NCBI GenBank assembly: GCA_002429595.1 | Contig: DJAM01000148.1 | Span: 1 to 41,914, forward strand | From: Coxiellaceae bacterium UBA6002 | GTDB taxonomy: Bacteria; Pseudomonadota; Gammaproteobacteria; UBA6002 | Direction: 5' to 3' | Length of the DNA: 41,914 bases | Part shown: one piece after another, positions 1,494-38,978 of the stretch | Layout of the letters: each line of letters opens with the position of its first letter | Numbering within the stretch: the stretch's first letter is position 1 | Notes under the pieces: generated by a model | What the model was told of the DNA's origin: nothing | What the model saw: only the letters and a program-made list of their open reading frames with translations | The model's database searches: none | Made by a program: the position numbers and the translations under genes

Positions 1494-2456
1494 ATGTTAA
1501 TATGGTCTTTATCTGCATCAGCTATCAAAGTCCTCGATGACATCAAAAAGCCATCAGAGCAAAGCTTTATCTGGATCGATGCCGATCCCCAAGAACTTTG
1601 CCAGGTGCTGGAGAAAACTCATAGCATTAATGGCATAACCCTTAACGAAGAACACATTCGGGACTGTCAAAATTTGCAGCACCCCAGTTTTTATGAAAAG
1701 ACGATGTCTTACGATATATTGATTTTCCGTAGTTTGATCGCCAAGCTTGCGCCTAAAACAATACAAACAACAGCGATCACTTTTTTGATTTTTCCAAAAA
1801 TACTGGTCACTTTTCATCAAAATGACGAAGCTATGAGTCGTATCAAAAAGAAGCTGCAAAATATCAAAAAAACCCTGCCTACAGAACCCAATAACCTGAT
1901 GTTTATTATCCTTGACGAAATCGTGGATAACTTTTTACTTTTAAAAACACCTTTATTAGATGAATATAATGTCTGGGAGCAGCAGCTATTTGATAATACC
2001 TCTCGAGCTAGAAGTATTAACTGGAGAAAATATCTAAATTTTAAAACTGAGACCAGAAAACTGCGTATTTTAGGGGAAGAACAAATAGAGGTGATTTATC
2101 AATGGCGTCACGATAATGAATTAGGCCTGAATGAAGACTTGGCAATTCGATATAATGACTTATTAGATCATATTAAAAGGGTAATTCGATCAACCACACA
2201 ATTAGAAAATGAGTTAGACACTCTGACGCAATTACATTATTCATTAATTGGTAATCGAACTAATGATACGATGCGTACTTTAACGGTTCTTTCCGGGATT
2301 TTTTTGCCGTTAAATCTCATTGCTGGTATTTTTGGGATGAATTTTGCACACATGAATATATTTCAATCATACTATGCACAAGACATCACCCTGTGGGGGA
2401 TGTTAATATTGGCGGTCTTTTTGTTATTAGTTTTCAAATGGATAAAATGGATATAG
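1494..2456 (+). CDS. CorA-family divalent cation (Mg2+/Co2+) transporter
   Basis: 320 aa. GMN signature (FGMNFAHMN) followed by two C-terminal TM helices. The long soluble N-terminal domain is typical of CorA/ZntB. Confidence 0.7.
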   Translation: MLIWSLSASAIKVLDDIKKPSEQSFIWIDADPQELCQVLEKTHSINGITLNEEHIRDCQNLQHPSFYEKTMSYDILIFRSLIAKLAPKTIQTTAITFLIFPKILVTFHQNDEAMSRIKKKLQNIKKTLPTEPNNLMFIILDEIVDNFLLLKTPLLDEYNVWEQQLFDNTSRARSINWRKYLNFKTETRKLRILGEEQIEVIYQWRHDNELGLNEDLAIRYNDLLDHIKRVIRSTTQLENELDTLTQLHYSLIGNRTNDTMRTLTVLSGIFLPLNLIAGIFGMNFAHMNIFQSYYAQDITLWGMLILAVFLLLVFKWIKWI

Positions 2457-2484
2457 AAAAAATCTGCTCTATAGCAGATTTAGG
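2457..2484 (-). terminator. Intrinsic terminator oriented for minus-strand transcription
   Basis: 9-bp perfect stem aaatctgct/agcagattt (2460-2468 / 2473-2481) with a 4-nt loop. On the minus strand it is followed by UUUUUCUAU. On the plus strand it is followed by agggg, which is not U-rich. Confidence 0.5.
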
Positions 2485-2650
2485 GGTGTCCCGACGATGT
2501 TGTCACCTCTGAGCTCTCTTATGTATACTTTGGTAGTTTGCGAAACACATTAGGCTTTTTACATTTAGTAAACATGCACACCGTGTCTCGAACTAACTCC
2601 CCATACCATTCTCATGTTAGTTCAGGGATAAACACCATACAGGACACTTA
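2457..2650 (-). ncRNA. Candidate ~190-nt sRNA in the corA/priA intergenic region, transcribed antisense to the flanking genes
   Basis: Putative sigma70 promoter on the minus strand: TTGAAA (2685-2680) - N18 - TATTAT (2661-2656). No minus-strand ORF follows. The transcript would run to the terminator at 2457-2484. Confidence 0.3.
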
Positions 2651-2718
2651 ATAAAATAATAGTACAAAAAACAGTAGTTTTTCAACCTGTAGGCTAAGCT
2701 AATGGAGGCTTTAAGCCA

Positions 2719-4920
2719 TTGATAATTAAAGAAAATTGTATCTTACAAGTCGCTTTAGCTACGCCCATTCGAAAAACGTTTGATTATCTGCCGCCTGAGC
2801 CTTTTAATCCACAAGCCCTAAAATCTGGCATTAGAATCAAAGTACCGTTTGGCCGGGGAGAGAAGGTGGGTGTCTTATTAAACATTAAAACAGAAAGTCA
2901 TCTTCCTAAAGCCAAGCTGAAACATGCCATTAGCGTTTTAGATCCAGTTCCGCTGTTCGATCAGTCGATTATGATGCTTTACCAATTTGCAAGTCAGTAT
3001 TATCAACATGCAATGGGTGAAATCATTTTCGCAAGTCTGCCTCCTTTGCTAAGAGATGGTCAGCCTGCCAGCTTACCTGAAGAAATTATTTTTATCTTAA
3101 CTGAGTTAGGAGCAAAAACCTCCGAAGAGGCTTTTCGCCATGCGGTTCAACAACGAAAAATAATGACTTTATTAAATGCACACCCCAATGGTTTATCTCG
3201 AGATGAGATCCTCGCAAATGGGGGAGAACAAAAAGCCTTAACGGCGTTGCTCGCAAAAGGCTATCTGAAAAAATATGTCCTAAAACGCACCATGGTTACC
3301 GGTAAGGTTCAAAAGCATTTACCTTTGAATGAGTATCAACAAACAGCAGTTGCTGCGATTACGGGACAGAAAGGTTTTGCAACTTATTTGCTAGAAGGAG
3401 TGACGGGTAGCGGTAAAACCGAAGTTTATTTACAGTCTATTGAGGCCGTTCTAAAAAATAATAAACAAGCCTTAGTTCTCGTTCCTGAAATAGGACTTAC
3501 GCCGCAAACTGTGGCTAGGTTTCAAGAACGTTTCAATTTACCGATCAGCATTTTGCATTCCGGCTTAAACGATAAAGAACGGAATAACGCGTGGTTATTA
3601 GCCTCAGATGGTACCGCTCGAATTATTATTGGCACTCGCTCCGCTGTGCTCACTCCTTTGCCGGCTTTGGGACTGATTATTCTTGATGAAGAACATGATG
3701 TTTCTTTCAAACAGCAATCTGGCTTTCGTTATTCGGCAAGAGATTTAGCAATTATGCGTGCCAAGCTAACAGATGTACCCGTTGTTTTGGGGACAGCAAC
3801 ACCGTGTTTAGAATCGTTGTTTAATGTAAAACAAAAACGCTTTTTGCATCTCAATTTACCAGTAAGAGCAGGGCAATCCATTGCCCCGAGTTTTCATCTC
3901 ATCGATGTTCGTAGCACAAAGTTAGAAGAGGGATTTTCTCCTGCTATTCTCGAGCAAATGCAAAAACATTTGGGTAACGGTGGCCAGGTTTTAATTTTCT
4001 TAAATAGACGTGGCTATGCGCCAACTTTGTTGTGTCATCAGTGTGGTTGGATAGCGAGTTGTTCGCGTTGTGATGCACGGCTAACATACCATGCCGAGTT
4101 AGAATATTTAATTTGCCATCACTGTGCGACAAATTATCGAATTAACAAAAAATGTGGTGCTTGCCATAGTAGAGAATTATTGCTTCTAGGCGTGGGGACA
4201 CAACGGGTAGAAAAATTTCTAACACATCATTTTCCTCTCGCTCACATCACTCGAATTGATCGTGATAGCACACGCAAGAAAGGAGCTATGGCAAAAATGC
4301 TCGCACATGTCCAAAGTGGTGAGAGCAATATTTTAATTGGGACTCAGATGTTGGCCAAAGGTCATCATTTTCCTGACGTAACGATGGTAGTCATTACCGA
4401 TATCGATACTCAGCTATATAGCACCGATTTTAGAGCCTGTGAGCGCTTAGGACAGCTTATCGTCCAAGTGGCCGGTCGTGCAGGTCGCAGCGAAAAACCC
4501 GGCGAGGTTTATTTGCAAACACATAATCCAACGCATCCATTGCTACTGCAATTAATCAAAAGTGGTTACAGCCGTTTTGCAGAACAGTTATTAAAGGAAA
4601 GAAAATCAGCAGAATTGCCGCCTTTTTCGCATCTGGCATTATTTAGAGCACAAGGGACACATCAAAGTTTAGCGCAGGAATTTTTAACAGAAGTCCGCAA
4701 ATTATTTTTAGACGATCAAAATATCAGCATTTTTGGTCCAATTCCGGCATTAATGGAAAAGAAGGCAGGCAAATTTCGAGCACAACTTTTGGTACAAGCA
4801 AAAAAACGCGTCTATTTACAAAAAATATTACAAGATAAAATGTCGATTATTGAAAATCTACCTTCTGCCCGCAAAGTTCGTTGGTCAATCGACATTGATC
4901 CAATTGATGTGCTCTCTTGA
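2719..4920 (+). CDS. priA: Primosomal protein N' (PriA helicase)
   Basis: 733 aa. Walker A GVTGSGKTEVY. DExH-like LIILDEEHD. Zn-binding Cys cluster (CHQCGWIASCSRCDARLTYH...CHHC...CGAC). Apparent TTG start preceded by GGAGG (2704-2708). Confidence 0.9.
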   Translation: MIIKENCILQVALATPIRKTFDYLPPEPFNPQALKSGIRIKVPFGRGEKVGVLLNIKTESHLPKAKLKHAISVLDPVPLFDQSIMMLYQFASQYYQHAMGEIIFASLPPLLRDGQPASLPEEIIFILTELGAKTSEEAFRHAVQQRKIMTLLNAHPNGLSRDEILANGGEQKALTALLAKGYLKKYVLKRTMVTGKVQKHLPLNEYQQTAVAAITGQKGFATYLLEGVTGSGKTEVYLQSIEAVLKNNKQALVLVPEIGLTPQTVARFQERFNLPISILHSGLNDKERNNAWLLASDGTARIIIGTRSAVLTPLPALGLIILDEEHDVSFKQQSGFRYSARDLAIMRAKLTDVPVVLGTATPCLESLFNVKQKRFLHLNLPVRAGQSIAPSFHLIDVRSTKLEEGFSPAILEQMQKHLGNGGQVLIFLNRRGYAPTLLCHQCGWIASCSRCDARLTYHAELEYLICHHCATNYRINKKCGACHSRELLLLGVGTQRVEKFLTHHFPLAHITRIDRDSTRKKGAMAKMLAHVQSGESNILIGTQMLAKGHHFPDVTMVVITDIDTQLYSTDFRACERLGQLIVQVAGRAGRSEKPGEVYLQTHNPTHPLLLQLIKSGYSRFAEQLLKERKSAELPPFSHLALFRAQGTHQSLAQEFLTEVRKLFLDDQNISIFGPIPALMEKKAGKFRAQLLVQAKKRVYLQKILQDKMSIIENLPSARKVRWSIDIDPIDVLS

Positions 4921-5750: not shown

Positions 5751-5812
5751 CATGACGTCATCCCGCGATCTGTCATTCCCGCCTTCGCGGGAATGACAGA
5801 TCACCGGACTGT
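5747..5812. repeat. REP-like palindromic element
   Basis: Perfect 15-bp arms atctgtcattcccgc / gcgggaatgacagat (5768-5782 / 5787-5801) with a 4-nt loop. Preceded by a degenerate half-unit gacgtcatcccgcg. Lies in the aroE / MOMP-gene intergenic region. Confidence 0.6.
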
Positions 5813-5840
5813 TAGATTCCAATAAAATTAGGGAAGAATA

Positions 5841-8800
5841 ATGAAAAAATGGATGTTAACGCTTATCTCTCTTGGTTATATCAGTCCCATTTTTGCTACA
5901 GCGCATGATTCTTTTCTGGTCACTGGCGAGACTCTAAATGAAGTCGCCAACTATGACCACGTTTTTGATATGCCGAATTTCTTTACGCGTGTTTTTCCGC
6001 AAAACTTAAACCCAAATCTAGTGATAGTACCTAGGACTAATAGTGGCTTCATATTCGGACTAACAGGTGCCTTGCTCCGGTCATTTGATAACCAGACCGA
6101 CTATGTTATTCCCGATACAAGTCCACTGCCTTTCTTGCCAAGCCCTAATAGTAATATTCGTGAGATTAGTCCAGATTACAATTTTGGTTATGGCGGTTAT
6201 CTCGGGTATGTCTATCCATATACTGGCAGAGATATTAAATTTAGTTTCTTCTTGTTTGATGAGAATGTGAATGACTCGATCACGGCGCCTACCGATGGCA
6301 CCTTGTGGACGCCTCTTGCGCTTTATGATCAAACGACAGAAGCTGATGCAGCATTTGCGAAATACACGACCAATTTTTATTCCGCCAAATTAATGATGGG
6401 TCAAAATATTGTTGCCGGCACTCGCCTTCGAATTCACCCCTCACTAGGTTTGCAATATGCAGGTATCAATCGTGAGTTAAAAACAAACTATGGTGCGGCA
6501 TCAGGTATTCTTGATGTGCTGCCATTTGGTGATTCTGTTGTTAAGCAGAAAAGTAACTTCAATGGTATCGGTCCTGCAATACAATTCGATTTAAGTTATT
6601 TCCTTGCGCCACATTTCGCATTAACCGGACATTTACTTAACTCGATTTTGGTCGGTACGATCACGAGCGAAATAAACTACGCAGAAGATCTTTTACTGAC
6701 CACGCCACTTGATTCTGCTCCTGCCAACACGGTAATTAATCTTACATCAGCGAATCGTTGCGTTGCTAATTTAGATGGGAAGTTAGGTTTCTGCTTCGAA
6801 TATCCATTCTGCGGAACTAACACCAAAATGGAGATCGAAATTGGCTACGAGTTTAATCACTTCTTTAATGCAATTGATACCTATCGAAGTGCTGGCGGCG
6901 CATTTTTTGTTGATGAAACCGATCCGCCAGTTTATGTTGACACACCATTGCACATCAAAAACCCCCATGATTTTACAATGGATGGCCCCTATTTAACTTT
7001 GGGGCTTTCTGGTATTTCTTGCCCAGATAATGTTGTGATAGATCCAGTCTGTGTGACTGTTCCGAAACTAGATGGTGGTTTTGTATTTAGTATAGGAGCT
7101 ATTTATTATCGCATGAATCATAACCATACTGATTTTGCGATTTTAGATCCTACCCCGACACTGATTACCGATCCTCTAGTTGATCCAACTGTACCACCTG
7201 TCTTTGTGCCAAGCACTAAATCTACGCTTAAAAATATCGAAAGTGATAGCTCTTACGGCTTAATGTTTGATTTGGGTTATATATTCAGAAAAACTCCGTA
7301 CGACATGACTTTCCACTTTGAAGGCTTGAACGGACAAGATAAAGAACGAGTGACAGCTCCAGCAGCAGGCACTGTGTGGCCTATACTGGTGACACCATTT
7401 TTTAATCCTACACAAACTGGTATGTTCGCAACGCGAGCACATGCAAATCTGAAAAATACATATTACGAGGCGCATCTTGATGTAGGTCAAGCTATTAGCG
7501 CCGACAATTTAGCCTGGTTTAGATTATTTGAAGGGATTGAGTACGCCCGTCTTTATTCTGATCTTCATGTTACTTACGATAATGTCACTACTAATCCATT
7601 CGCGCTTTTCGATGAAATCCCTGATCCGACGTTAACTTATCGAAGGGTTGATGCCGTTTCAAAGAGCCGTTTCAATGGCTACGGTCCTCGAGTTGGTATA
7701 GACATGGCGCTTCCGATGGGTTGGATCAATCTAATTGCCGAGCTAGCAGGTGGTTTCCTCTTTGGAAATATTGACTCAACTTATAGCAACACTTACGAAT
7801 CAGGTGTTTTAACAGGCGCCGATCCTGATGTTGTGTTAGTGCCAGGAGGCAATTTAGGCGCTTCGTTAGACTCACAAAATCAGGTGGCCCCATTTTTAGA
7901 TACAAAAGTTGCGATTGGTTATGGCTTCGATTTTTTTGCAAGAACCAAATGGACGGTTGAATTAGGGTTTAAAGCAGCTCATTACTTTAACGCAGCAACA
8001 ACTTTCCGCCATGTTACTAATAATTCTGCTGATTTCGTTAAGCAAGTTGATGACATCACAGTCAATGGACCTTACTTAAATGTGTCGGTCTTTGGCTTTG
8101 GTGCTTGCCCACCAGACTGTTTACCACGGGATCCTTTCTGCGTCATTGTGCCTGAACTCAAAGGTGGCTTAGAGCTAGCGATTGAATATCTCTATTTGCG
8201 TCCCAATGTGGTTAACGTTGATTACGCTTTAGTTGATCCTGCACCAACATTTGTACCAAATTTGGTTGAACCACCTGTGTTTGCAGATGGTTTTGAATTT
8301 AATCCAAGTGCTAGATCAAGGGTTCAGTTCTTAACGCCGCAATTTGCTTCTGGCTATCGTGCACATGTAGGCTATATCTTTCCACTGACCTCTAATGACA
8401 TTTCAGTTAACTTTGTACAATACGAAGCAAGTTCTTCTGATCATGCTTCAGCGCCTGCCTTTGGTTTGCTTTGGACTATTACTAATGGCAGTTTTGGCTC
8501 TGTCTCAAGTGTTGATCCAACTTTCTTCCCGATCGCAGCCGACCATGCCAACGTGAATGTAGATTTTAATTGGCAGACTGGCAATGTAGAGATGGGTAAA
8601 CGAGTTAAATTTTATAACCTCATGCTGAGAGCTTTTGCAGGTCTGACATACGCTAAAGTGACTGAAAATATCAAGATTACTTATCTAGATGGTTTTTCAG
8701 TGGGTCCCGATACTCTTATTCCAATTGCCTCTGATGCTATTCACCAAGGCAATGACTTCTCCGGATTTGGTCCTCGCTTGGGTGTTGCTGGTGACTTCGG

Positions 8801-9143
8801 TTTTGGCTGTGGCTTTTCGCTGGTCGCACTGGTTGGTACTGACTTGCTAGTTGGCACATTCAATAGTAGTCTCGAAGAGCTTTCTTCAAGTGGTGATTCA
8901 GCAACCTTAAACCCAACGAAAAGAACTCGTTTGGCACCTGCCGTCGACGGCAAGATCGGAATCGCCTACACAATTGCTCTGAAAAACTGTGCTCAAATTA
9001 GTCTTGAAGGCGGTTATCAAATGAATCATTATTTTAATGCGAAAGATAGCTTGCGCTTCACCAGTAATTCCAATGCCTTCATCAAACAAGAACAAGATGT
9101 CAGTTTTGATGGTTGGTATGGCAGATTACAAATTAATTTCTAA
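5841..9143 (+). CDS. Outer membrane protein with three tandem Legionella-type MOMP (porin) domains and a signal peptide
   Basis: 1100 aa. Sec signal MKKWMLTLISLGYISPIFATA. Three ~360-aa repeats start at about nt 6180, 7250 and 8346. Each has Legionella MOMP hallmarks: an aromatic N-terminal strand (NFGYGGYLGYVYPY / SYGLMFDLGYIF / ASGYRAHVGYIF), NG(I/Y/F)GP(A/R)(I/V/L)G, and (Y/F)xxNHYFNA. The final residue is F (Q-I-N-F). Pro-rich linkers carry Cys pairs. Confidence 0.8.
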   Translation: MKKWMLTLISLGYISPIFATAHDSFLVTGETLNEVANYDHVFDMPNFFTRVFPQNLNPNLVIVPRTNSGFIFGLTGALLRSFDNQTDYVIPDTSPLPFLPSPNSNIREISPDYNFGYGGYLGYVYPYTGRDIKFSFFLFDENVNDSITAPTDGTLWTPLALYDQTTEADAAFAKYTTNFYSAKLMMGQNIVAGTRLRIHPSLGLQYAGINRELKTNYGAASGILDVLPFGDSVVKQKSNFNGIGPAIQFDLSYFLAPHFALTGHLLNSILVGTITSEINYAEDLLLTTPLDSAPANTVINLTSANRCVANLDGKLGFCFEYPFCGTNTKMEIEIGYEFNHFFNAIDTYRSAGGAFFVDETDPPVYVDTPLHIKNPHDFTMDGPYLTLGLSGISCPDNVVIDPVCVTVPKLDGGFVFSIGAIYYRMNHNHTDFAILDPTPTLITDPLVDPTVPPVFVPSTKSTLKNIESDSSYGLMFDLGYIFRKTPYDMTFHFEGLNGQDKERVTAPAAGTVWPILVTPFFNPTQTGMFATRAHANLKNTYYEAHLDVGQAISADNLAWFRLFEGIEYARLYSDLHVTYDNVTTNPFALFDEIPDPTLTYRRVDAVSKSRFNGYGPRVGIDMALPMGWINLIAELAGGFLFGNIDSTYSNTYESGVLTGADPDVVLVPGGNLGASLDSQNQVAPFLDTKVAIGYGFDFFARTKWTVELGFKAAHYFNAATTFRHVTNNSADFVKQVDDITVNGPYLNVSVFGFGACPPDCLPRDPFCVIVPELKGGLELAIEYLYLRPNVVNVDYALVDPAPTFVPNLVEPPVFADGFEFNPSARSRVQFLTPQFASGYRAHVGYIFPLTSNDISVNFVQYEASSSDHASAPAFGLLWTITNGSFGSVSSVDPTFFPIAADHANVNVDFNWQTGNVEMGKRVKFYNLMLRAFAGLTYAKVTENIKITYLDGFSVGPDTLIPIASDAIHQGNDFSGFGPRLGVAGDFGFGCGFSLVALVGTDLLVGTFNSSLEELSSSGDSATLNPTKRTRLAPAVDGKIGIAYTIALKNCAQISLEGGYQMNHYFNAKDSLRFTSNSNAFIKQEQDVSFDGWYGRLQINF

Positions 9144-13047: not shown

Positions 13048-13500
13048 TTATGCAGCAAGACGACCAAAAAACTTCCCATTAAGATATTTAGGCAATTCAT
13101 GTTCTTTGATTTTGGTATAGTCTTTATCAAGAGTATCAACGATTTTATCGATGACGAAATGTGAGCAGCATTTGTTTAGTAAGCCTTGAAAATGTGCTGG
13201 GGCTATCACTATTAAGTTTGCGTAAAGATTTTTAGTTCTTCCTTGCTCAAGTATATTAGCCAAGGTATGAGCGAATTTATCGGCCTCCATTTTTTTGGGA
13301 GTAAGAGACTCCTCAAAAGCACTTTTTGGTGCTACTGATTTTCGATAGCGTCCTGGCGCATCAGTAATTAAATTCATCGCTTTTTCTCTACTCTCAGGAT
13401 GAAAAAATTCGTGTAATAAATGCATGTTTTGATAGTTCTTTTGTATCTTAAAAAGGCGGGCTTCACTAGCATTTGCTATAAGTACCCAAGTTGTTTTCAT
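13048..13500 (-). CDS. Host-attachment-protein-like (PF10116-like) hypothetical protein
   Basis: 150 aa. N-terminus MKTTWVLIANASEARLF resembles the 'protein required for attachment to host cells' family as remembered. Not verified. Confidence 0.4.
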   Translation of the reverse strand: MKTTWVLIANASEARLFKIQKNYQNMHLLHEFFHPESREKAMNLITDAPGRYRKSVAPKSAFEESLTPKKMEADKFAHTLANILEQGRTKNLYANLIVIAPAHFQGLLNKCCSHFVIDKIVDTLDKDYTKIKEHELPKYLNGKFFGRLAA

Positions 13501-17998: not shown

Positions 17999-18775
17999 TT
18001 ACTGTGTGCAATCTCGATTGCTTGTCGTTGCTCCTAATTTAGTCTGACATAATTTTGCATTAACTAGCATTGCTTCTGTTATCGTCGAGCCATTTACGGT
18101 ACTGTTTGCTAAATTTGCTTGGTTAAAATTAGTTTGTTTGAATGCTTGCTCTGGTGAATTATCGCATGGTGTTAATTCTGAATTGCTTAGATTTGCATTG
18201 GAGAAATTCGCTTTTGTGAAATCTGCATTAATTTTGCTGTTGCTGAGGTTTGCTTTAGAAAAATTACAGTGAGTAAAATCGGCGCCACAGCCACCCATTG
18301 GAGGGCGAACTGTAAGGTTTGTCATGTGAGCGTTCTGGAAATTTGAGTTGATGAACGAAGAGTGCTCAAGAAACGTTGCGCCGTTTAATTTGGCATTTTG
18401 AAAGTTGGTGCGGTTGGCGATGACGGCGTTGAAATGTGAGCCGCTTAAATTCGCGTTTTTGAATGATGCGCCTTTTAAAATCACCTTGCCTACTTGTGGT
18501 GATATTCCGGGTCCAAAATCTGCAGGGCTAAAATAAGCATTGGTTAGATTAGCGCCATCAAATTTCGCGCCAGTTAAATTACAAATTAACGTGCTTTGGC
18601 TGTTTTTGGTCACTAAAGTTTTACTGTCACCTAAAACAAAATTGGTTAAATTTGCATTCGTTAAATCGCAATGTGGACAGCTACACGTCGTTTTTAACTT
18701 ATTAAGATCTTGTTGATTAAAACCGAAAGTGGTGCAGGTTATTCCTAATAATAAGACAAATAGTATATTTTTCAT
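17999..18775 (-). CDS. Secreted pentapeptide-repeat protein
   Basis: 258 aa. Sec signal MKNILFVLLLGITCTTFG. Long run of A(N/D)L(S/T)x pentapeptides (ANLTN, ANLSG, ANLSNS, ANFSNANLSNSELT...). Its 3' end is the right copy of the islet direct repeat. Confidence 0.8.
   Translation of the reverse strand: MKNILFVLLLGITCTTFGFNQQDLNKLKTTCSCPHCDLTNANLTNFVLGDSKTLVTKNSQSTLICNLTGAKFDGANLTNAYFSPADFGPGISPQVGKVILKGASFKNANLSGSHFNAVIANRTNFQNAKLNGATFLEHSSFINSNFQNAHMTNLTVRPPMGGCGADFTHCNFSKANLSNSKINADFTKANFSNANLSNSELTPCDNSPEQAFKQTNFNQANLANSTVNGSTITEAMLVNAKLCQTKLGATTSNRDCTQ
18023..18057. repeat. Right copy of the islet-bounding direct repeat; encodes the C-terminus of the pentapeptide-repeat protein
   Basis: See 16326-16360. 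This copy is in frame (..KLCQTKLGATTSNRDCTQ*). Confidence 0.55.
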
Positions 18776-34843: not shown

Positions 34844-35001
34844 GTTGATTAGTTAAATTGTAATGCGTGAGTGTTGAAGTAAAGGAACAGTGCTAATTTG
34901 TTTCGTAGATTGTATTAATAAAAATATCATAGTTCATTGTGCTTTTATCATTCTTATGTATAATTGCGCCTATTGTTAGCATTCAATGGGTAATAATTAT
35001 A

Positions 35002-37104
35002 ATGATTGAATATATTTCTGCGCATATTCCTCTCTTCTCTCTAATCATTGCCTTTACAGTACTTACTTTGTTTATTCTATATAAAGCTATTTTCATCGTT
35101 GGAGGCCAACAAATTGCGGTGCTCGAACGTAGATGGTTTGGCAAACAAATGCCTGCTAATCGTGTTGTAGCCATGGCTAACGAGGTGGGTATACAAGCGC
35201 GCATATTAGGTCCCGGTCTTCATATTCTTATTCCATTAGTTTATAAAATAACTAAACATCCTATGATGATTATTAGTGAAGGAGAAGTTGGATTAGTCGA
35301 GGCAATTGATGGTCAAGCTGTTCCTCCTGGTCGTATTTATGCCAAAGCTCTTGGAAAGCACAATCTTTTTCAAGACGGAGAAGCCTTTTTGACATCGGAG
35401 AGTGAAAAAGGACCTCAAATCGAAATTTTGCCACCGGGTACTTATCGAATAAATCCTTATTTGTTTCACATTGAAAAACAAGCGTCTATTCAAATTGCCG
35501 AAAATGAAGTGGGTATTGTTGTAGCCAACGATGGCGATACCATCACATCAGGCCAGATATTAGGAAAACAAATTCAACAGCATAATCATTATCAAAATGG
35601 TGCCGCATTTTTAGAAAATGGTGGTCAGAAAGGACCACAAATTGAAATTTTACTACCTGGTACGTATCGAATTAATACCAAACTTTTTAATGTCAATTTA
35701 ACAAGTGCCACAGTTATTCCCGCAGGAAAAGTTGGTCTGGTCACAGCAGAAACAGGAAGACCACTAGAAACTGCGGAGTATGTGGCAAGCTCTGTAAGTG
35801 GTCATCAAAATTATCAGGATGGCTCAGCATTTTTAGAGCATGGTGGTCAACGAGGTCCACAATACGACCTATTAAAACCTGGAACCTACTATGTCAATCC
35901 ATTAATGTTTAAAGTTAATTTGGATGAAGTATTACATGTCGAACGTGGAGGCGTTGCTGTTATTGTTTCAAACGTAGGTAAAGAACCTAGTGTAGAAAAA
36001 GATGTGAACAATTCTGCAGAAAATAAAGGTATAGAAAGATATGTCGTTTCTTCAGGATGTCGAGGTATTCAACGCGAAGTATTAGGCCCTGGTATTTATT
36101 ACCTAAATAAATTAGCACATACCCCTTACATTATTCCTACTACTAATATCACCATTGATTGGGCTAGTGATAAGTCACAAGAATCTAACCTTCAAACCAA
36201 TCGTATTCCTCGCGTGCTAGATCCGTTGTCAATCGTTTCAAAAGATGGCTTTCAAATGACTGTTGAGGTTAAGGTCATCATTCGCATTTTACCGGAGCAA
36301 GCTCCGCATATGTTGGCACGTATCGGTACGGTTGATAATTTGATAGAGCATGTTATCCATCCATTAATCGATAGTTCATTTCGCAATCAAGCTTCTTCTT
36401 CAGAAGCGATGAAATTCATGCAAGATCGCCACATTGAACAAAGTAAAGCAGAAGAGCATGTTGCAGGTGAATTAGCAAAATATCATGTGGAATGTGTCAG
36501 TGTATTGATCTGCCAGATCAAATTACCAGACCGTCTAATGGAAACAATGACCAATAAAGTAGTCGCGTCGCAACAAATGGCGATGTATGACGCGCAACAA
36601 GAAGCTGAGGGTCGACGAAAGGAAATGGAAAAAACAAAAGCGCAAGCCGACTCCCAACCTAACTTGGTAAAAGCTGAGATCGACGTGCAGATTGCTTCAC
36701 AACAAAAGCAACAACAAATCATTCTTGCAGAAGGTAAAAGTCAAGCAACGAAACTAGAGCAAGAAGGTGTCGCTGCAGGTATTGAAGCAGTAGGGCGAGC
36801 AGAAGCAGAAAAAACTAGAGCAATAGGTGAGGCAACTGCAGCAGCATATAATCACCAAGTTGAATCACTAGGTCAACAGTCCTTAGCGATAATTGAAGTG
36901 ATGAAACAAGTTTCCAATGGTCAAATAAAAATTACGCCAGACATATTGGTGAATAGTGCAGCAGGAGGAAGTGAGAATGCGACTTCGAATATGCTAACTG
37001 CGTTTATAGCAAATATGCTCAAAAACAGTCAGAGTGAACCTCAACCTATTTTTACAACTAAGAAGTCTGATAAAAAAGTAAATCCGGTTGTAGAACCTGT
37101 TTAA
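35002..37104 (+). CDS. Flotillin-like SPFH/band-7 protein with four tandem ~74-aa N-terminal repeats
   Basis: N-terminal TM. LGPGLHILIPLV SPFH start. Four repeats of ..VG(L/I)V.A..G........YQ.G.AFLE.GGQ.GPQ...L.PGTY..N..LF.V.L. C-terminal SPFH core followed by an E/A/Q-rich coiled coil (flotillin domain). Start placed at ATG 35002; a TATAAT at about 34961 lies inside the longer track ORF. Confidence 0.7.
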   Translation: MIEYISAHIPLFSLIIAFTVLTLFILYKAIFIVGGQQIAVLERRWFGKQMPANRVVAMANEVGIQARILGPGLHILIPLVYKITKHPMMIISEGEVGLVEAIDGQAVPPGRIYAKALGKHNLFQDGEAFLTSESEKGPQIEILPPGTYRINPYLFHIEKQASIQIAENEVGIVVANDGDTITSGQILGKQIQQHNHYQNGAAFLENGGQKGPQIEILLPGTYRINTKLFNVNLTSATVIPAGKVGLVTAETGRPLETAEYVASSVSGHQNYQDGSAFLEHGGQRGPQYDLLKPGTYYVNPLMFKVNLDEVLHVERGGVAVIVSNVGKEPSVEKDVNNSAENKGIERYVVSSGCRGIQREVLGPGIYYLNKLAHTPYIIPTTNITIDWASDKSQESNLQTNRIPRVLDPLSIVSKDGFQMTVEVKVIIRILPEQAPHMLARIGTVDNLIEHVIHPLIDSSFRNQASSSEAMKFMQDRHIEQSKAEEHVAGELAKYHVECVSVLICQIKLPDRLMETMTNKVVASQQMAMYDAQQEAEGRRKEMEKTKAQADSQPNLVKAEIDVQIASQQKQQQIILAEGKSQATKLEQEGVAAGIEAVGRAEAEKTRAIGEATAAAYNHQVESLGQQSLAIIEVMKQVSNGQIKITPDILVNSAAGGSENATSNMLTAFIANMLKNSQSEPQPIFTTKKSDKKVNPVVEPV

Positions 37105-37395
37105 CGATATTAAAGGATGAAATCCTTAAGGAAAAAATAATTAATTATCTTGAGAAATAAGTAACAGTAATAAGATTTCGAAATGCTTATGTTTTCTGAT
37201 GATAAAACTATTGATTTTTAATGTGTTCTAAGCTTTTGTAGTAGTGATATTACGCTACCTCGTATATTTTTTAAGTCCACTAAAAAGTCTTCTGGTAAAA
37301 AATACACACTTGAAAGTATACCATCATGAGGAATGTAAACTTTTAATATTAGTTTCTCTTTTATTTTGAGATATTTTTCATAAAATAAATCGAGA

Positions 37396-37626
37396 TTATT
37401 TCTTGTTTCTTCGTTCTTCGTTCAAAGCTGTAAGGCTAAACATGGCCTGTTCAAATAATGGTGAAAGTGTTTGATATTCTTCATAGGTAGTTCTTTCACT
37501 TGTTATAATTTTATCTAAATACGTATTGAATTTACGAAGATTAAATTGCAATATTAAAAGAGATTCTCTGTCTTTATTATTTTTTTGGTTTTTTATTCGT
37601 GTCTCAATCCATATTTGATTCATCAT
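37396..37626 (-). CDS. Hypothetical small charged protein (76 aa) downstream of the ATPase gene
   Basis: ORF only. No RBS (upstream tgctttaatttgctttattt). Confidence 0.15.
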   Translation of the reverse strand: MMNQIWIETRIKNQKNNKDRESLLILQFNLRKFNTYLDKIITSERTTYEEYQTLSPLFEQAMFSLTALNEERRNKK

Positions 37627-37646
37627 AAATAAAGCAAATTAAAGCA

Positions 37647-38978
37647 CTAATTGGATAATGGGAATTTAGCGATAAGGTAAAGCGGGTAATTACAGATGTC
37701 ATTATCCTGTTTCAAGTTCAACAATGTTGCACGTGATACAAAAGGAAGTTGATATTTTTGTTGATAAACACGTAAGCTTTTCTGCTTTGTAGTTGTGTTT
37801 GCTTTGACCTCTAAAGGAAAAATTTGATCTTCTACAGGCACTAAAAAATCTATTTCTGCTGTTCCTTCGCTAGTCCAGTAATACAGTTTGTCGTCGTATT
37901 TTACTTGCAGTTCTTGTGCGACATAATTTTCGGTTAAAGCGCCTTTGAATTCAGTGAAAAGCTCGTTACCTTCAACAATAACTTTAGGGAGTAGCTGGCT
38001 CATAGCTCCAAGTAATCCTAAGTCGAGTAAAAAAACTTTAAAAACGTTTTTATTTGCATAACTATTCAGAGGTAATCTTGGTGTTGAGGTATGATATGAT
38101 TTGTGTATTAATCCAGCATCTGTGAGCCATTGTAAAGCTGTCTCATACTCACGACCACGAGCCCCTTTACGTAAAGCTGAGAAAATAAATTTTTTATTCT
38201 CTTTAGCTAATTGACCTGGTATAGATTCCCAGATAGTTGTGATCTTCATGATTTCATTTGCTGGAGCGTGCTTAGCGAAATCTGCGATATACCCAGTTAA
38301 AATTTCTTGATGTACCGTGCGTACTAAAGAGAAATCGTTATTATCTATAAAAGCTTTTACAGCTTCTGGCATACCTCCTACAACAAAATAATATTTTAGA
38401 AAACCAATCAATTGTTCATGAATGGGTATAGGTAAAGGTTCAAAATGTATGAGACTTTCCAAAAGTTCTCTTAGTTTGTGTTTTTCAATTGCATCGAGAA
38501 ACTCAAAAAAACTTAATGGATATAAATCTAAAAAATTTACTTTTCCTACAGGAAATCCTTTTGCTCCTGCTAACTTAACGCCTAACAGTGAGCCGGCACT
38601 CACAACAGCAAAATCATTTGCTTCTTCATTAAAATACTTAAGACTTGTTAATGCATTAGGGCATTCCTGAACTTCGTCAAATATAATTAAAGTGCTTTCC
38701 GGTTTAATTGGTTGATCTAAGTATATGCTAATGTTTTGAACGATAGTTTGTGGATTTAAATTGCCACTAAAGAATTCTCTTGCTGCTGGGTTTTCTTCAA
38801 AATTTAAATAACAATAATTTTCATACTCATTAGTAGCAAATTCTTTCAACAAATAGGTTTTACCTACTTGTCTTGCTCCTCGCATGACTAAAGGTTTGCG
38901 GCTGGGGGAAGTTTTCCAGGAGAGTAATTGTTTATAAGCATCACGTTTCATATGCTGTATCTTAGCAAAACGTGACAT
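37647..38978 (-). CDS. AAA+ ATPase with C-terminal DUF4143 (PD-(D/E)xK nuclease-like) domain, COG1373 family
   Basis: 443 aa. Walker A GARQVGKT. Walker B LIIFDEVQ. C-terminal EIDFLV...PLEVKA resembles a PD-(D/E)xK core. AT-rich flanks. Confidence 0.8.
   Translation of the reverse strand: MSRFAKIQHMKRDAYKQLLSWKTSPSRKPLVMRGARQVGKTYLLKEFATNEYENYCYLNFEENPAAREFFSGNLNPQTIVQNISIYLDQPIKPESTLIIFDEVQECPNALTSLKYFNEEANDFAVVSAGSLLGVKLAGAKGFPVGKVNFLDLYPLSFFEFLDAIEKHKLRELLESLIHFEPLPIPIHEQLIGFLKYYFVVGGMPEAVKAFIDNNDFSLVRTVHQEILTGYIADFAKHAPANEIMKITTIWESIPGQLAKENKKFIFSALRKGARGREYETALQWLTDAGLIHKSYHTSTPRLPLNSYANKNVFKVFLLDLGLLGAMSQLLPKVIVEGNELFTEFKGALTENYVAQELQVKYDDKLYYWTSEGTAEIDFLVPVEDQIFPLEVKANTTTKQKSLRVYQQKYQLPFVSRATLLNLKQDNDICNYPLYLIAKFPLSN

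Follow-up and report, generated by a model that had tools for sequence, protein, structure and literature searches.

Three Legionella-type MOMP domains in one polypeptide: a predicted three-barrel outer membrane protein that is probably packed as a pseudo-trimer

A 41,914-nucleotide stretch of contig DJAM01000148.1 from the Coxiellaceae bacterium UBA6002 assembly (GCA_002429595.1; Gammaproteobacteria), hereafter called the window, carries at positions 5841 to 9143 of its forward strand a complete open reading frame (ORF) that starts with ATG, stops at 9141–9143, and encodes a product of 1100 amino acids. A first-pass annotation had described this product as three consecutive units of the Legionella-type major outer membrane protein (MOMP) behind a single signal peptide, and had asked whether they form a pseudo-trimer within one chain. 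The gene, referred to here as the triple-MOMP gene, was recognized by Pfam, and the same product was recovered in independent sequencing runs. The mature protein has a computed mass of ∼118.6 kDa and a pI of 4.7.

All parts of the gene lie on the forward strand. Residues 1 to 19 (MKKWMLTLISLGYISPIFA, 5841–5897) look like a Sec signal peptide when read by eye, with predicted cleavage before TAHD and a hydrophobic region with a mean Kyte–Doolittle value of 1.7. The full-chain structure model described below renders these residues as a helix with low predicted local distance difference test (pLDDT) values. The segment MKKWMLTLISLGYISPIFA-TA, at the N terminus, is the sole signal-peptide-like segment of the protein, in agreement with the proposal of one signal peptide for the whole chain. 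It is followed by a conserved N-terminal extension (residues 20–60, 5898–6020), which precedes the first barrel and is not part of the PF05150 (Legionella_OMP) domain core. Next come unit 1 (residues 61–393, 6021–7019), linker 1 (CPDNVVIDPVC, residues 394–404, 7020–7052), unit 2 (residues 405–755, 7053–8105), linker 2 (CPPDCLPRDPFC, residues 756–767, 8106–8141), and unit 3 (residues 768–1100, 8142–9140). Each unit matches PF05150 and is predicted to form a 10-stranded barrel, with the 10 long strands of unit 1 spanning residues 70 to 392 and those of unit 3 spanning residues 776 to 1099, and both linkers are rich in Cys and Pro and predicted to be periplasmic.

Pfam matched PF05150 in three stretches of the whole protein, with a total of 420 bits. 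When the thirds were scanned singly, units 1, 2, and 3 reached 129.7, 136.4, and 166.8 bits (cut-off, 25.4 bits), and the matches covered profile positions 2–279, 1–279, and 2–279 of 281, respectively. Because each third alone achieves a full-profile score, the ORF contains three complete MOMP domains and no fragments, as had been claimed. The units share 26.6 to 28.0% protein identity with BLASTP E values of 1.6e-28 to 2.6e-39, well past chance, and comparison of the same units as DNA found only chance matches of 23 nucleotides or fewer. The repeat is therefore real and old, beyond the making of an assembler, and the assertion that the units have diverged at the DNA level was borne out.

The motifs and linker segments quoted in the first-pass annotation were all located. 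The linker segments CPDNVVIDPVCV and CPPDCLPRDPFC occupy residues 394–405 and 756–767. A V-x-VP segment opens each unit (VIVPRTNSGF at residue 61, VTVPKLDGGF at 405, and VIVPELKGGL at 768), and YFNA-type motifs are found at residues 339 (NHFFNA), 713 (AHYFNA), and 1062 (NHYFNA). GxGP motifs are located at residues 241 (NGIGPA), 612 (NGYGPR), and 974 (SGFGPR); the NGxGPxG loop attributed to every unit is thus present, but in unit 1 it is approximate only (NGIGPAIQ). The protein had no NCBIfam match, and neither Pfam nor NCBIfam matched it to the families of 16-stranded trimeric porins of the OmpF/PorB type. Weaker Pfam hits were set aside as generic barrel similarity: a 45-residue stretch of unit 1 resembled the autotransporter β-domain PF03797 (23.4 bits versus a cut-off of 26), and DUF2715 and OMP_b-brl gave weak matches below threshold.

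The coding frame was examined in several independent sources. An identical 1100-amino-acid product is encoded on five contigs taken from NCBI and the independently assembled runs SRR28285590, SRR5321113, and SRR28401817, and on all five the order of genes is priA-aroE-X-prlC-rpiA, where X is the triple-MOMP gene. A protein search recovered 15 full-length homologs of 1053 to 1117 amino acids with 46 to 92% identity and 100% coverage, as well as two truncated proteins. When 1.84 billion representatives were searched exhaustively with a profile, four remoter triple proteins emerged, with identities of 41% (P0018), 34% (P0020), 32% (P0019), and 29% (P0021), each giving one collinear match over ∼1100 residues. 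A scan of genome contigs with two peptide patterns yielded one locus only, in an uncultured gammaproteobacterial metagenome-assembled genome (MAG). No frameshift or stop codon that would split the gene was found in the five contigs or the 19 homologs.

Rates of nonsynonymous and synonymous substitution (dN and dS) were computed against the 92%-identical ortholog. The dN/dS values are 0.039 for unit 1, 0.037 for unit 2, and 0.059 for unit 3, and that of the adjacent housekeeping gene prlC is 0.043. The 23 linker codons have a dN of 0 even though synonymous sites are saturated. Given the low value in every unit, all three are kept by purifying selection and none is decaying. These data bear directly on the idea that three adjacent paralogous MOMP genes have been misread as one ORF, which we consider vanishingly improbable: the same product recurs on five contigs from independent runs, the frame is unbroken in 19 divergent homologs, no DNA-level repeat exists that could mislead an assembler, and purifying selection continues over the unit junctions. 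The view that the ORF is not an assembly collapse was likewise upheld.

A profile of the three units matched a single solved structure, PDB 9NH1 chain A (E = 1.1e-15). This chain is "Porin I" of the in situ Dot/Icm machine of Legionella pneumophila and was assigned to the MOMP Lpg2961, a 10-stranded barrel whose trimers form rings that encircle the secretion system in situ (Yue et al., PNAS 2025). An AlphaFold2 model of our full chain, based on an alignment of 15 ortholog sequences, has a mean pLDDT of 78.5, a predicted template modeling score (pTM) of 0.83, and about ten long strands per unit. Foldseek comparison of this model with the PDB ranked three 9nh1 chains first, with template modeling (TM) scores of 0.78 to 0.79 when normalized to the target, versus 0.25 or less for 22- to 26-stranded transporters and LptD. 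Unit 2 modeled alone (residues 394–755, 75-sequence alignment) reached a pLDDT of 91.5 and a pTM of 0.88. Its best structural match was again 9nh1 (TM 0.79–0.83), followed by the other 10-stranded barrels OmpT, Pla, and OpcA (TM ∼0.5), and PorB and other porins scored 0.25 or less by Foldseek. Unit 2 is internal and has no free C terminus, yet it was modeled as a closed 10-stranded barrel.

On the strength of these models, the chain very probably forms three separate barrels. The other outcome raised at the outset, one giant barrel of ∼30 strands, has a precedent of sorts in an artificial fusion in which, according to Arnold et al., two 8-stranded barrels joined by a 2-residue linker can yield one larger barrel. 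However, unit 2 closes confidently by itself, the full-chain model has a TM score of 0.79 to the 10-stranded 9NH1 but at most 0.25 to large barrels, and ∼20 residues lie between the last strand of a unit and the first of its successor. For these reasons one barrel of 30 strands is very unlikely, and the structure predictions favor three 10-stranded MOMP barrels.

The final strands of the units are alike in kind (GPYLTLGLSGIS in unit 1, GPYLNVSVFGFGA in unit 2, and GWYGRLQINF in unit 3). A canonical β-signal with a C-terminal Phe had been assigned to the last unit. The chain does end in Phe (GRLQINF), but the last residue among orthologs is Phe, Leu, or Ile.

Because an even number of strands places both ends of a barrel in the periplasm, the linkers of the modeled protein would be periplasmic. 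Each linker is 11 to 12 residues long, and in the model ∼20 residues separate consecutive barrels. Among the 15 orthologs, linkers 1 and 2 are among the best-conserved parts of the protein, with mean identities of 77.9% and 66%, respectively. C324, C394, C756, C760, and C1050 are invariant in this set, and C990 is present in 14 of the 15. C404 (codon 7050–7052) and C767 (codon 8139–8141) are jointly present in nine orthologs and jointly absent in six, a pattern that could reflect either a disulfide that joins the linkers or one loss event within a single clade. By strand counting in the model, all eight of these cysteines lie at periplasmic turns or linkers, a placement that fits disulfide stapling.

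Conserved linkers might also be expected if the protein were a polyprotein precursor, cut at the linkers after export into three subunits of 38 to 41 kDa that assemble as a heterotrimer. Conservation peaks at the linkers (66–78% mean identity, dN = 0), as it might at a processing site, and the last strands of the internal units resemble a normal C-terminal β-signal. We nevertheless regard processing as improbable. No precedent for a processed tandem precursor of outer membrane barrels is known to us, and literature searches found none; the Cys-Pro motifs are equally well or better explained as rigid connectors stapled by disulfides; and the linkers of a second, independent triple protein, described below, are quite different and free of Cys.

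To trace the origin of the repeat, a neighbor-joining tree of 86 units was built with 60 bootstrap replicates. Across the 16 orthologs, units 1, 2, and 3 are each monophyletic in 60, 52, and 56 of the 60 replicates, respectively. With the remote proteins P0019 to P0021 added (19 proteins), the corresponding counts are 22, 46, and 58, and 37 of 60 replicates unite all 57 units of the 19 triple proteins in one clade. The tree, in which units group by position in the chain, indicates that the main triple family goes back to a single ancient triplication and has since descended vertically.

A second triple protein, P0024 (1051 amino acids, L010 98–3253), has a different history. Its units are monophyletic in 60 of 60 replicates and are 49 to 58% identical as protein and 64 to 67% identical as DNA. 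The linkers are ∼25 residues long and contain no Cys, and the gene resides at another locus with a GC content of 35.8% over 10.3 kb. Judged by these comparisons, P0024 is an independent and younger triplication, so that a copy number of three was reached twice. There is also a two-unit family of 650 to 715 amino acids (P0017, P0027, P0047, P0052, P0058, P0066, P0072, and P0116), in which the N-terminal units form one clade and the C-terminal units another in 60 of 60 replicates, the two kinds being 19 to 24% identical to each other. On this evidence, the two-unit family arose from a separate old duplication. Completion of a trimer in a "2+1" manner was considered, and no single-unit MOMP gene was found beside P0017 (L011 8001–9950), the one locus inspected.

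The exhaustive search collected 4392 PF05150 representatives at E ≤0.001. Among the best 150 of these, seven clusters are triples, six of them full length and one truncated, alongside about eight doubles, a few triple fragments, and otherwise single units of 316 to 460 amino acids. Apart from a signal peptide, the tandem proteins have no domains beyond their PF05150 units. Versions with one, two, and three units, which the first-pass annotation had suggested seeking in relatives, were thus all found by profile search, and the three-unit architecture is real, conserved, and rare.

How the three barrels are arranged relative to each other is a separate question. From the way pTM is defined, a value of 0.83 for a chain of three equal domains suggests a fixed, compact mutual arrangement. 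Because the single-domain relative Lpg2961 is trimeric, the whole-chain pTM is high, the linkers are short and invariant, and triplication occurred twice independently, we consider it probable that the barrels pack as an intramolecular pseudo-trimer. Of the original pseudo-trimer proposal, the three separate barrels are supported by the models and the homotrimeric relative by experiment, and a trimer-like packing is what we infer from them.

Several points weigh against this packing. The geometry between barrels is drawn from pTM and from analogy to 9NH1, and the full-chain alignment held only 15 sequences. The existence of a conserved two-unit PF05150 family means that copy number need not equal oligomeric state. 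Conservation of outward- versus inward-facing strand residues, compared by strand phase, is noisy, with strands 1, 9, and 10 somewhat more conserved on the outward face and strands 3 and 4 least. Finally, this is a protein of an uncultured organism, known from its sequence and from models.

Some of the same observations could be accommodated by three barrels that do not close into an intramolecular trimer, existing either as beads on a string or as units that exchange partners with other chains and thereby cross-link neighboring trimers, so that the outer membrane is stiffened by a lattice. In L. pneumophila, MOMP trimers do surround the Dot/Icm machine in ordered arrays, the conserved two-unit family could not close a trimer on its own, and the packing in our model is known through pTM. 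The whole-chain pTM of 0.83, however, favors one defined compact arrangement, the linkers are short (11 to 12 residues) and invariant, and both independent triplications arrived at exactly three units. We therefore view an open or lattice-forming arrangement as unlikely, although it is a stronger competitor than either processing or a giant barrel.

The reading that we favor, with moderate confidence, is that of a single-chain, three-barrel outer membrane protein that arose by ancient tandem triplication of a Legionella-type MOMP and is packed as a pseudo-trimer. Its starting point is one chain with one signal-peptide-like segment and three complete MOMP domains under strong purifying selection. 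According to the models, each domain would close alone as an Lpg2961-like 10-stranded barrel, with the linkers on the periplasmic face. The barrels would then lie side by side around a pseudo-threefold axis, equivalent to the homotrimer of a single-domain MOMP within one molecule, and C324, C394, C756, C760, C990, and C1050, together with C404/C767, could staple the linkers and periplasmic turns through disulfides. The β-barrel assembly machinery (BAM) would presumably insert the barrels in succession, as every unit has its own β-signal-like last strand (GPY-φ-x-φ-x-φ). With stoichiometry and cyclic order fixed, the three "subunits" would be free to diverge to 27 to 30% identity and to specialize, and the outcome would be a hard-wired heterotrimeric porin that is also a structural protein of the outer membrane.

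The closest characterized relative is Lpg2961 (PF05150; TC 1.B.57, LM-OMP), which shares with the units the sequence family, the 10-stranded barrel (predicted in our case), and the V-x-VP, G-x-GPR, and YFNA motifs. Its native trimer corresponds in number to the three units of our chain. Lpg2961 differs in having 288 amino acids and one barrel per chain and in forming a homotrimer of identical subunits, whereas the protein described here joins three barrels by Cys/Pro linkers. These barrels are 27 to 30% identical to each other and 17 to 22% identical to Lpg2961, the units are ∼60 to 100 residues longer, mostly in loops, and the chain bears a conserved 40-residue N-terminal extension. More distant parallels are offered by OmpF/OmpC/PhoE, Neisseria PorB, and the chlamydial MOMP (PDB 9OQ7), which are also trimers of outer membrane barrels, and the chlamydial protein likewise has conserved periplasmic cysteines. 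All of these differ in barrel type, being 16-stranded in OmpF and PorB or built otherwise, with a single barrel in every chain and no match in sequence family.

Chains with several outer membrane barrels have been predicted before. The main text of Solan, Pereira, Lupas, Kolodny, and Ben-Tal (PNAS 2021, PMC8346858) describes 34 predicted multi-barrel architectures and 186 families and states that every outer membrane barrel structure solved by 2021 had one barrel per chain, multi-barrel chains being only predicted. Architectures that contain three barrels or more were there derived, in all but one case, from 8-stranded barrels, and the survey was seeded from known structures. That text makes no mention of Legionella, MOMP, or a 10-10 or 10-10-10 architecture. 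Its authors also asked by what route BAM would insert chains of this kind. One of its cases, PLA1-PLA1 (12-12), represents the barrel of the OMPLA homodimer amplified into one chain, and it resembles ours in that a homo-oligomerizing barrel has been multiplied within a polypeptide. Our protein also shares with the cases presented there full-length matches, clear linkers, restriction to a lineage, and more than one origin: its three barrel matches are non-overlapping, full-length, and delimited by linkers, and the models support separate barrels. It differs from those cases in that its number of barrels is the same as in a trimer seen by experiment and in that the family is old, with identities down to 29%.

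Fusions of another kind were reported by Reddy and Saier (2016), in which outer membrane pore proteins of different families are joined, all in α-proteobacteria, an example being TC 1.B.4.1.1 with 1115 amino acids and three domains. They resemble our protein in placing two or three full-length pore domains in one chain, but none involves the LM-OMP family, which is listed there (TCDB) at 370 ± 52 amino acids. Our literature searches turned up no report of a tandem MOMP, and no solved multi-barrel chain from after 2021 came to light, although no systematic search for one was made. The architecture had been called unusual, which holds in that it is rare within PF05150; as a class, multi-barrel outer membrane proteins, including the OMPLA fusion, had already been described computationally in the 2021 survey. 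The protein is the trimer counterpart of the OMPLA fusion within that predicted class.

Homology to its relatives leads us to expect a role as major porin and structural outer membrane protein. MOMP is the dominant surface protein of L. pneumophila, and the MOMPs of this organism are covalently tethered to peptidoglycan by LD-transpeptidases. The N-terminal extension is of interest in this regard. Among the 15 orthologs, residues 20 to 60 have a mean identity of 72.5% and 32% invariant columns (H22, F25, E34, H40, P45, F47, F48, and NPNLV at 57–61 are invariant), versus mean identities of 55 to 60% for the barrels, and the extension has pLDDT values below 50 in the full-chain model. It may be a segment for periplasmic interaction or tethering. 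If the N-terminal region is used for tethering, with residues 20 to 60 as the candidate, there would be one tether per three barrels, which is speculation. Divergence of the units to 27 to 30% identity, with differing loop insertions, suggests specialization of three pores or surfaces.

Whether this is the first natural single-chain porin whose single-domain relatives are experimentally homotrimeric, with fusion having allowed the barrels to become non-equivalent and cyclically ordered, and with such fusion having evolved at least twice in PF05150, is in our judgment an evenly balanced question. If true, BAM can fold three consecutive barrels of one polypeptide by way of internal β-signals, and selection would act on the MOMP trimer's fixed stoichiometry and asymmetry, one example being an asymmetric module for docking or tethering in Legionella-like envelopes. 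The protein is an unusually well-anchored test case, given a solved trimeric relative in situ, a matching copy number, and an old, constrained fusion with a younger independent counterpart. How BAM deals with multiple barrels per chain, and whether internal β-signals are needed, could be studied with it, and it could show whether covalent linkage can replace porin trimerization. It also offers a view of a symmetric homo-oligomer evolving into an asymmetric pseudo-oligomer within a membrane. For Legionella-like bacteria, the relevance lies in MOMP itself, whose L. pneumophila form has a peptidoglycan tether and surrounds a type IV secretion machine in arrays.

Upstream of the triple-MOMP gene, the intergenic region that follows aroE contains a perfect 16-bp hairpin at 5767–5802 on the forward strand (GATCTGTCATTCCCGC cttc GCGGGAATGACAGATC). 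Its RNA form has a minimum free energy of −38.9 kcal/mol (z = −5.9), it occurs once in the window, and it is not followed by a run of T residues. The hairpin probably separates the aroE and MOMP transcription units, and it could be a terminator that lacks a U-tract, an element of the repetitive extragenic palindromic type, or a regulatory hairpin. A Shine-Dalgarno-like AGGGAAG was recognized by eye at 5830–5836 on the same strand, just upstream of the ATG. A consensus scan revealed no convincing promoter ahead of the gene, the terminator-like sites that it showed within the gene were weak, and Rfam gave no match in the window. The triple-MOMP gene is monocistronic in character.

No further PF05150 gene is located elsewhere in the window, the rest of which is ordinary chromosomal housekeeping. 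In homologs at 48 to 52% identity the aroE/prlC neighborhood is kept, with the orientation sometimes opposite, and the most distant triple members occupy other genomic locations. A 150-amino-acid protein with Host_attach (PF10116) and baeRF_family12 domains, encoded at 13048–13500 on the reverse strand of the window, stays near the triple-MOMP gene in homologous loci of ∼50% identity (L005 1928–2383 and L007 428–880). The second of these loci, from a MAG, has a gene for a 596-amino-acid protein with faint ankyrin-repeat matches inserted between rpiA and a tRNA_edit gene (2091–3881, reverse strand), and this protein recalls the eukaryote-like effectors of Legionella-type bacteria.

Two other genes of the window stand among housekeeping genes such as efp, psd, tatC, fmt, and those for cytochrome oxidase assembly. 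One (34939–37104, forward strand) encodes a 721-amino-acid protein whose sole Pfam match, SPFH/Band 7, covers residues 368 to 556, behind a long N-terminal part, and the other (17999–18775, reverse strand) encodes a 258-amino-acid pentapeptide-repeat protein. Finally, the GC content falls to 0.30 at 37001–38000, versus ∼0.39 for the window. This block extends over the start of an AAA_14/DUF4143 ATPase gene (37647–38978, reverse strand) and the gap that precedes it, and could represent a small insertion.

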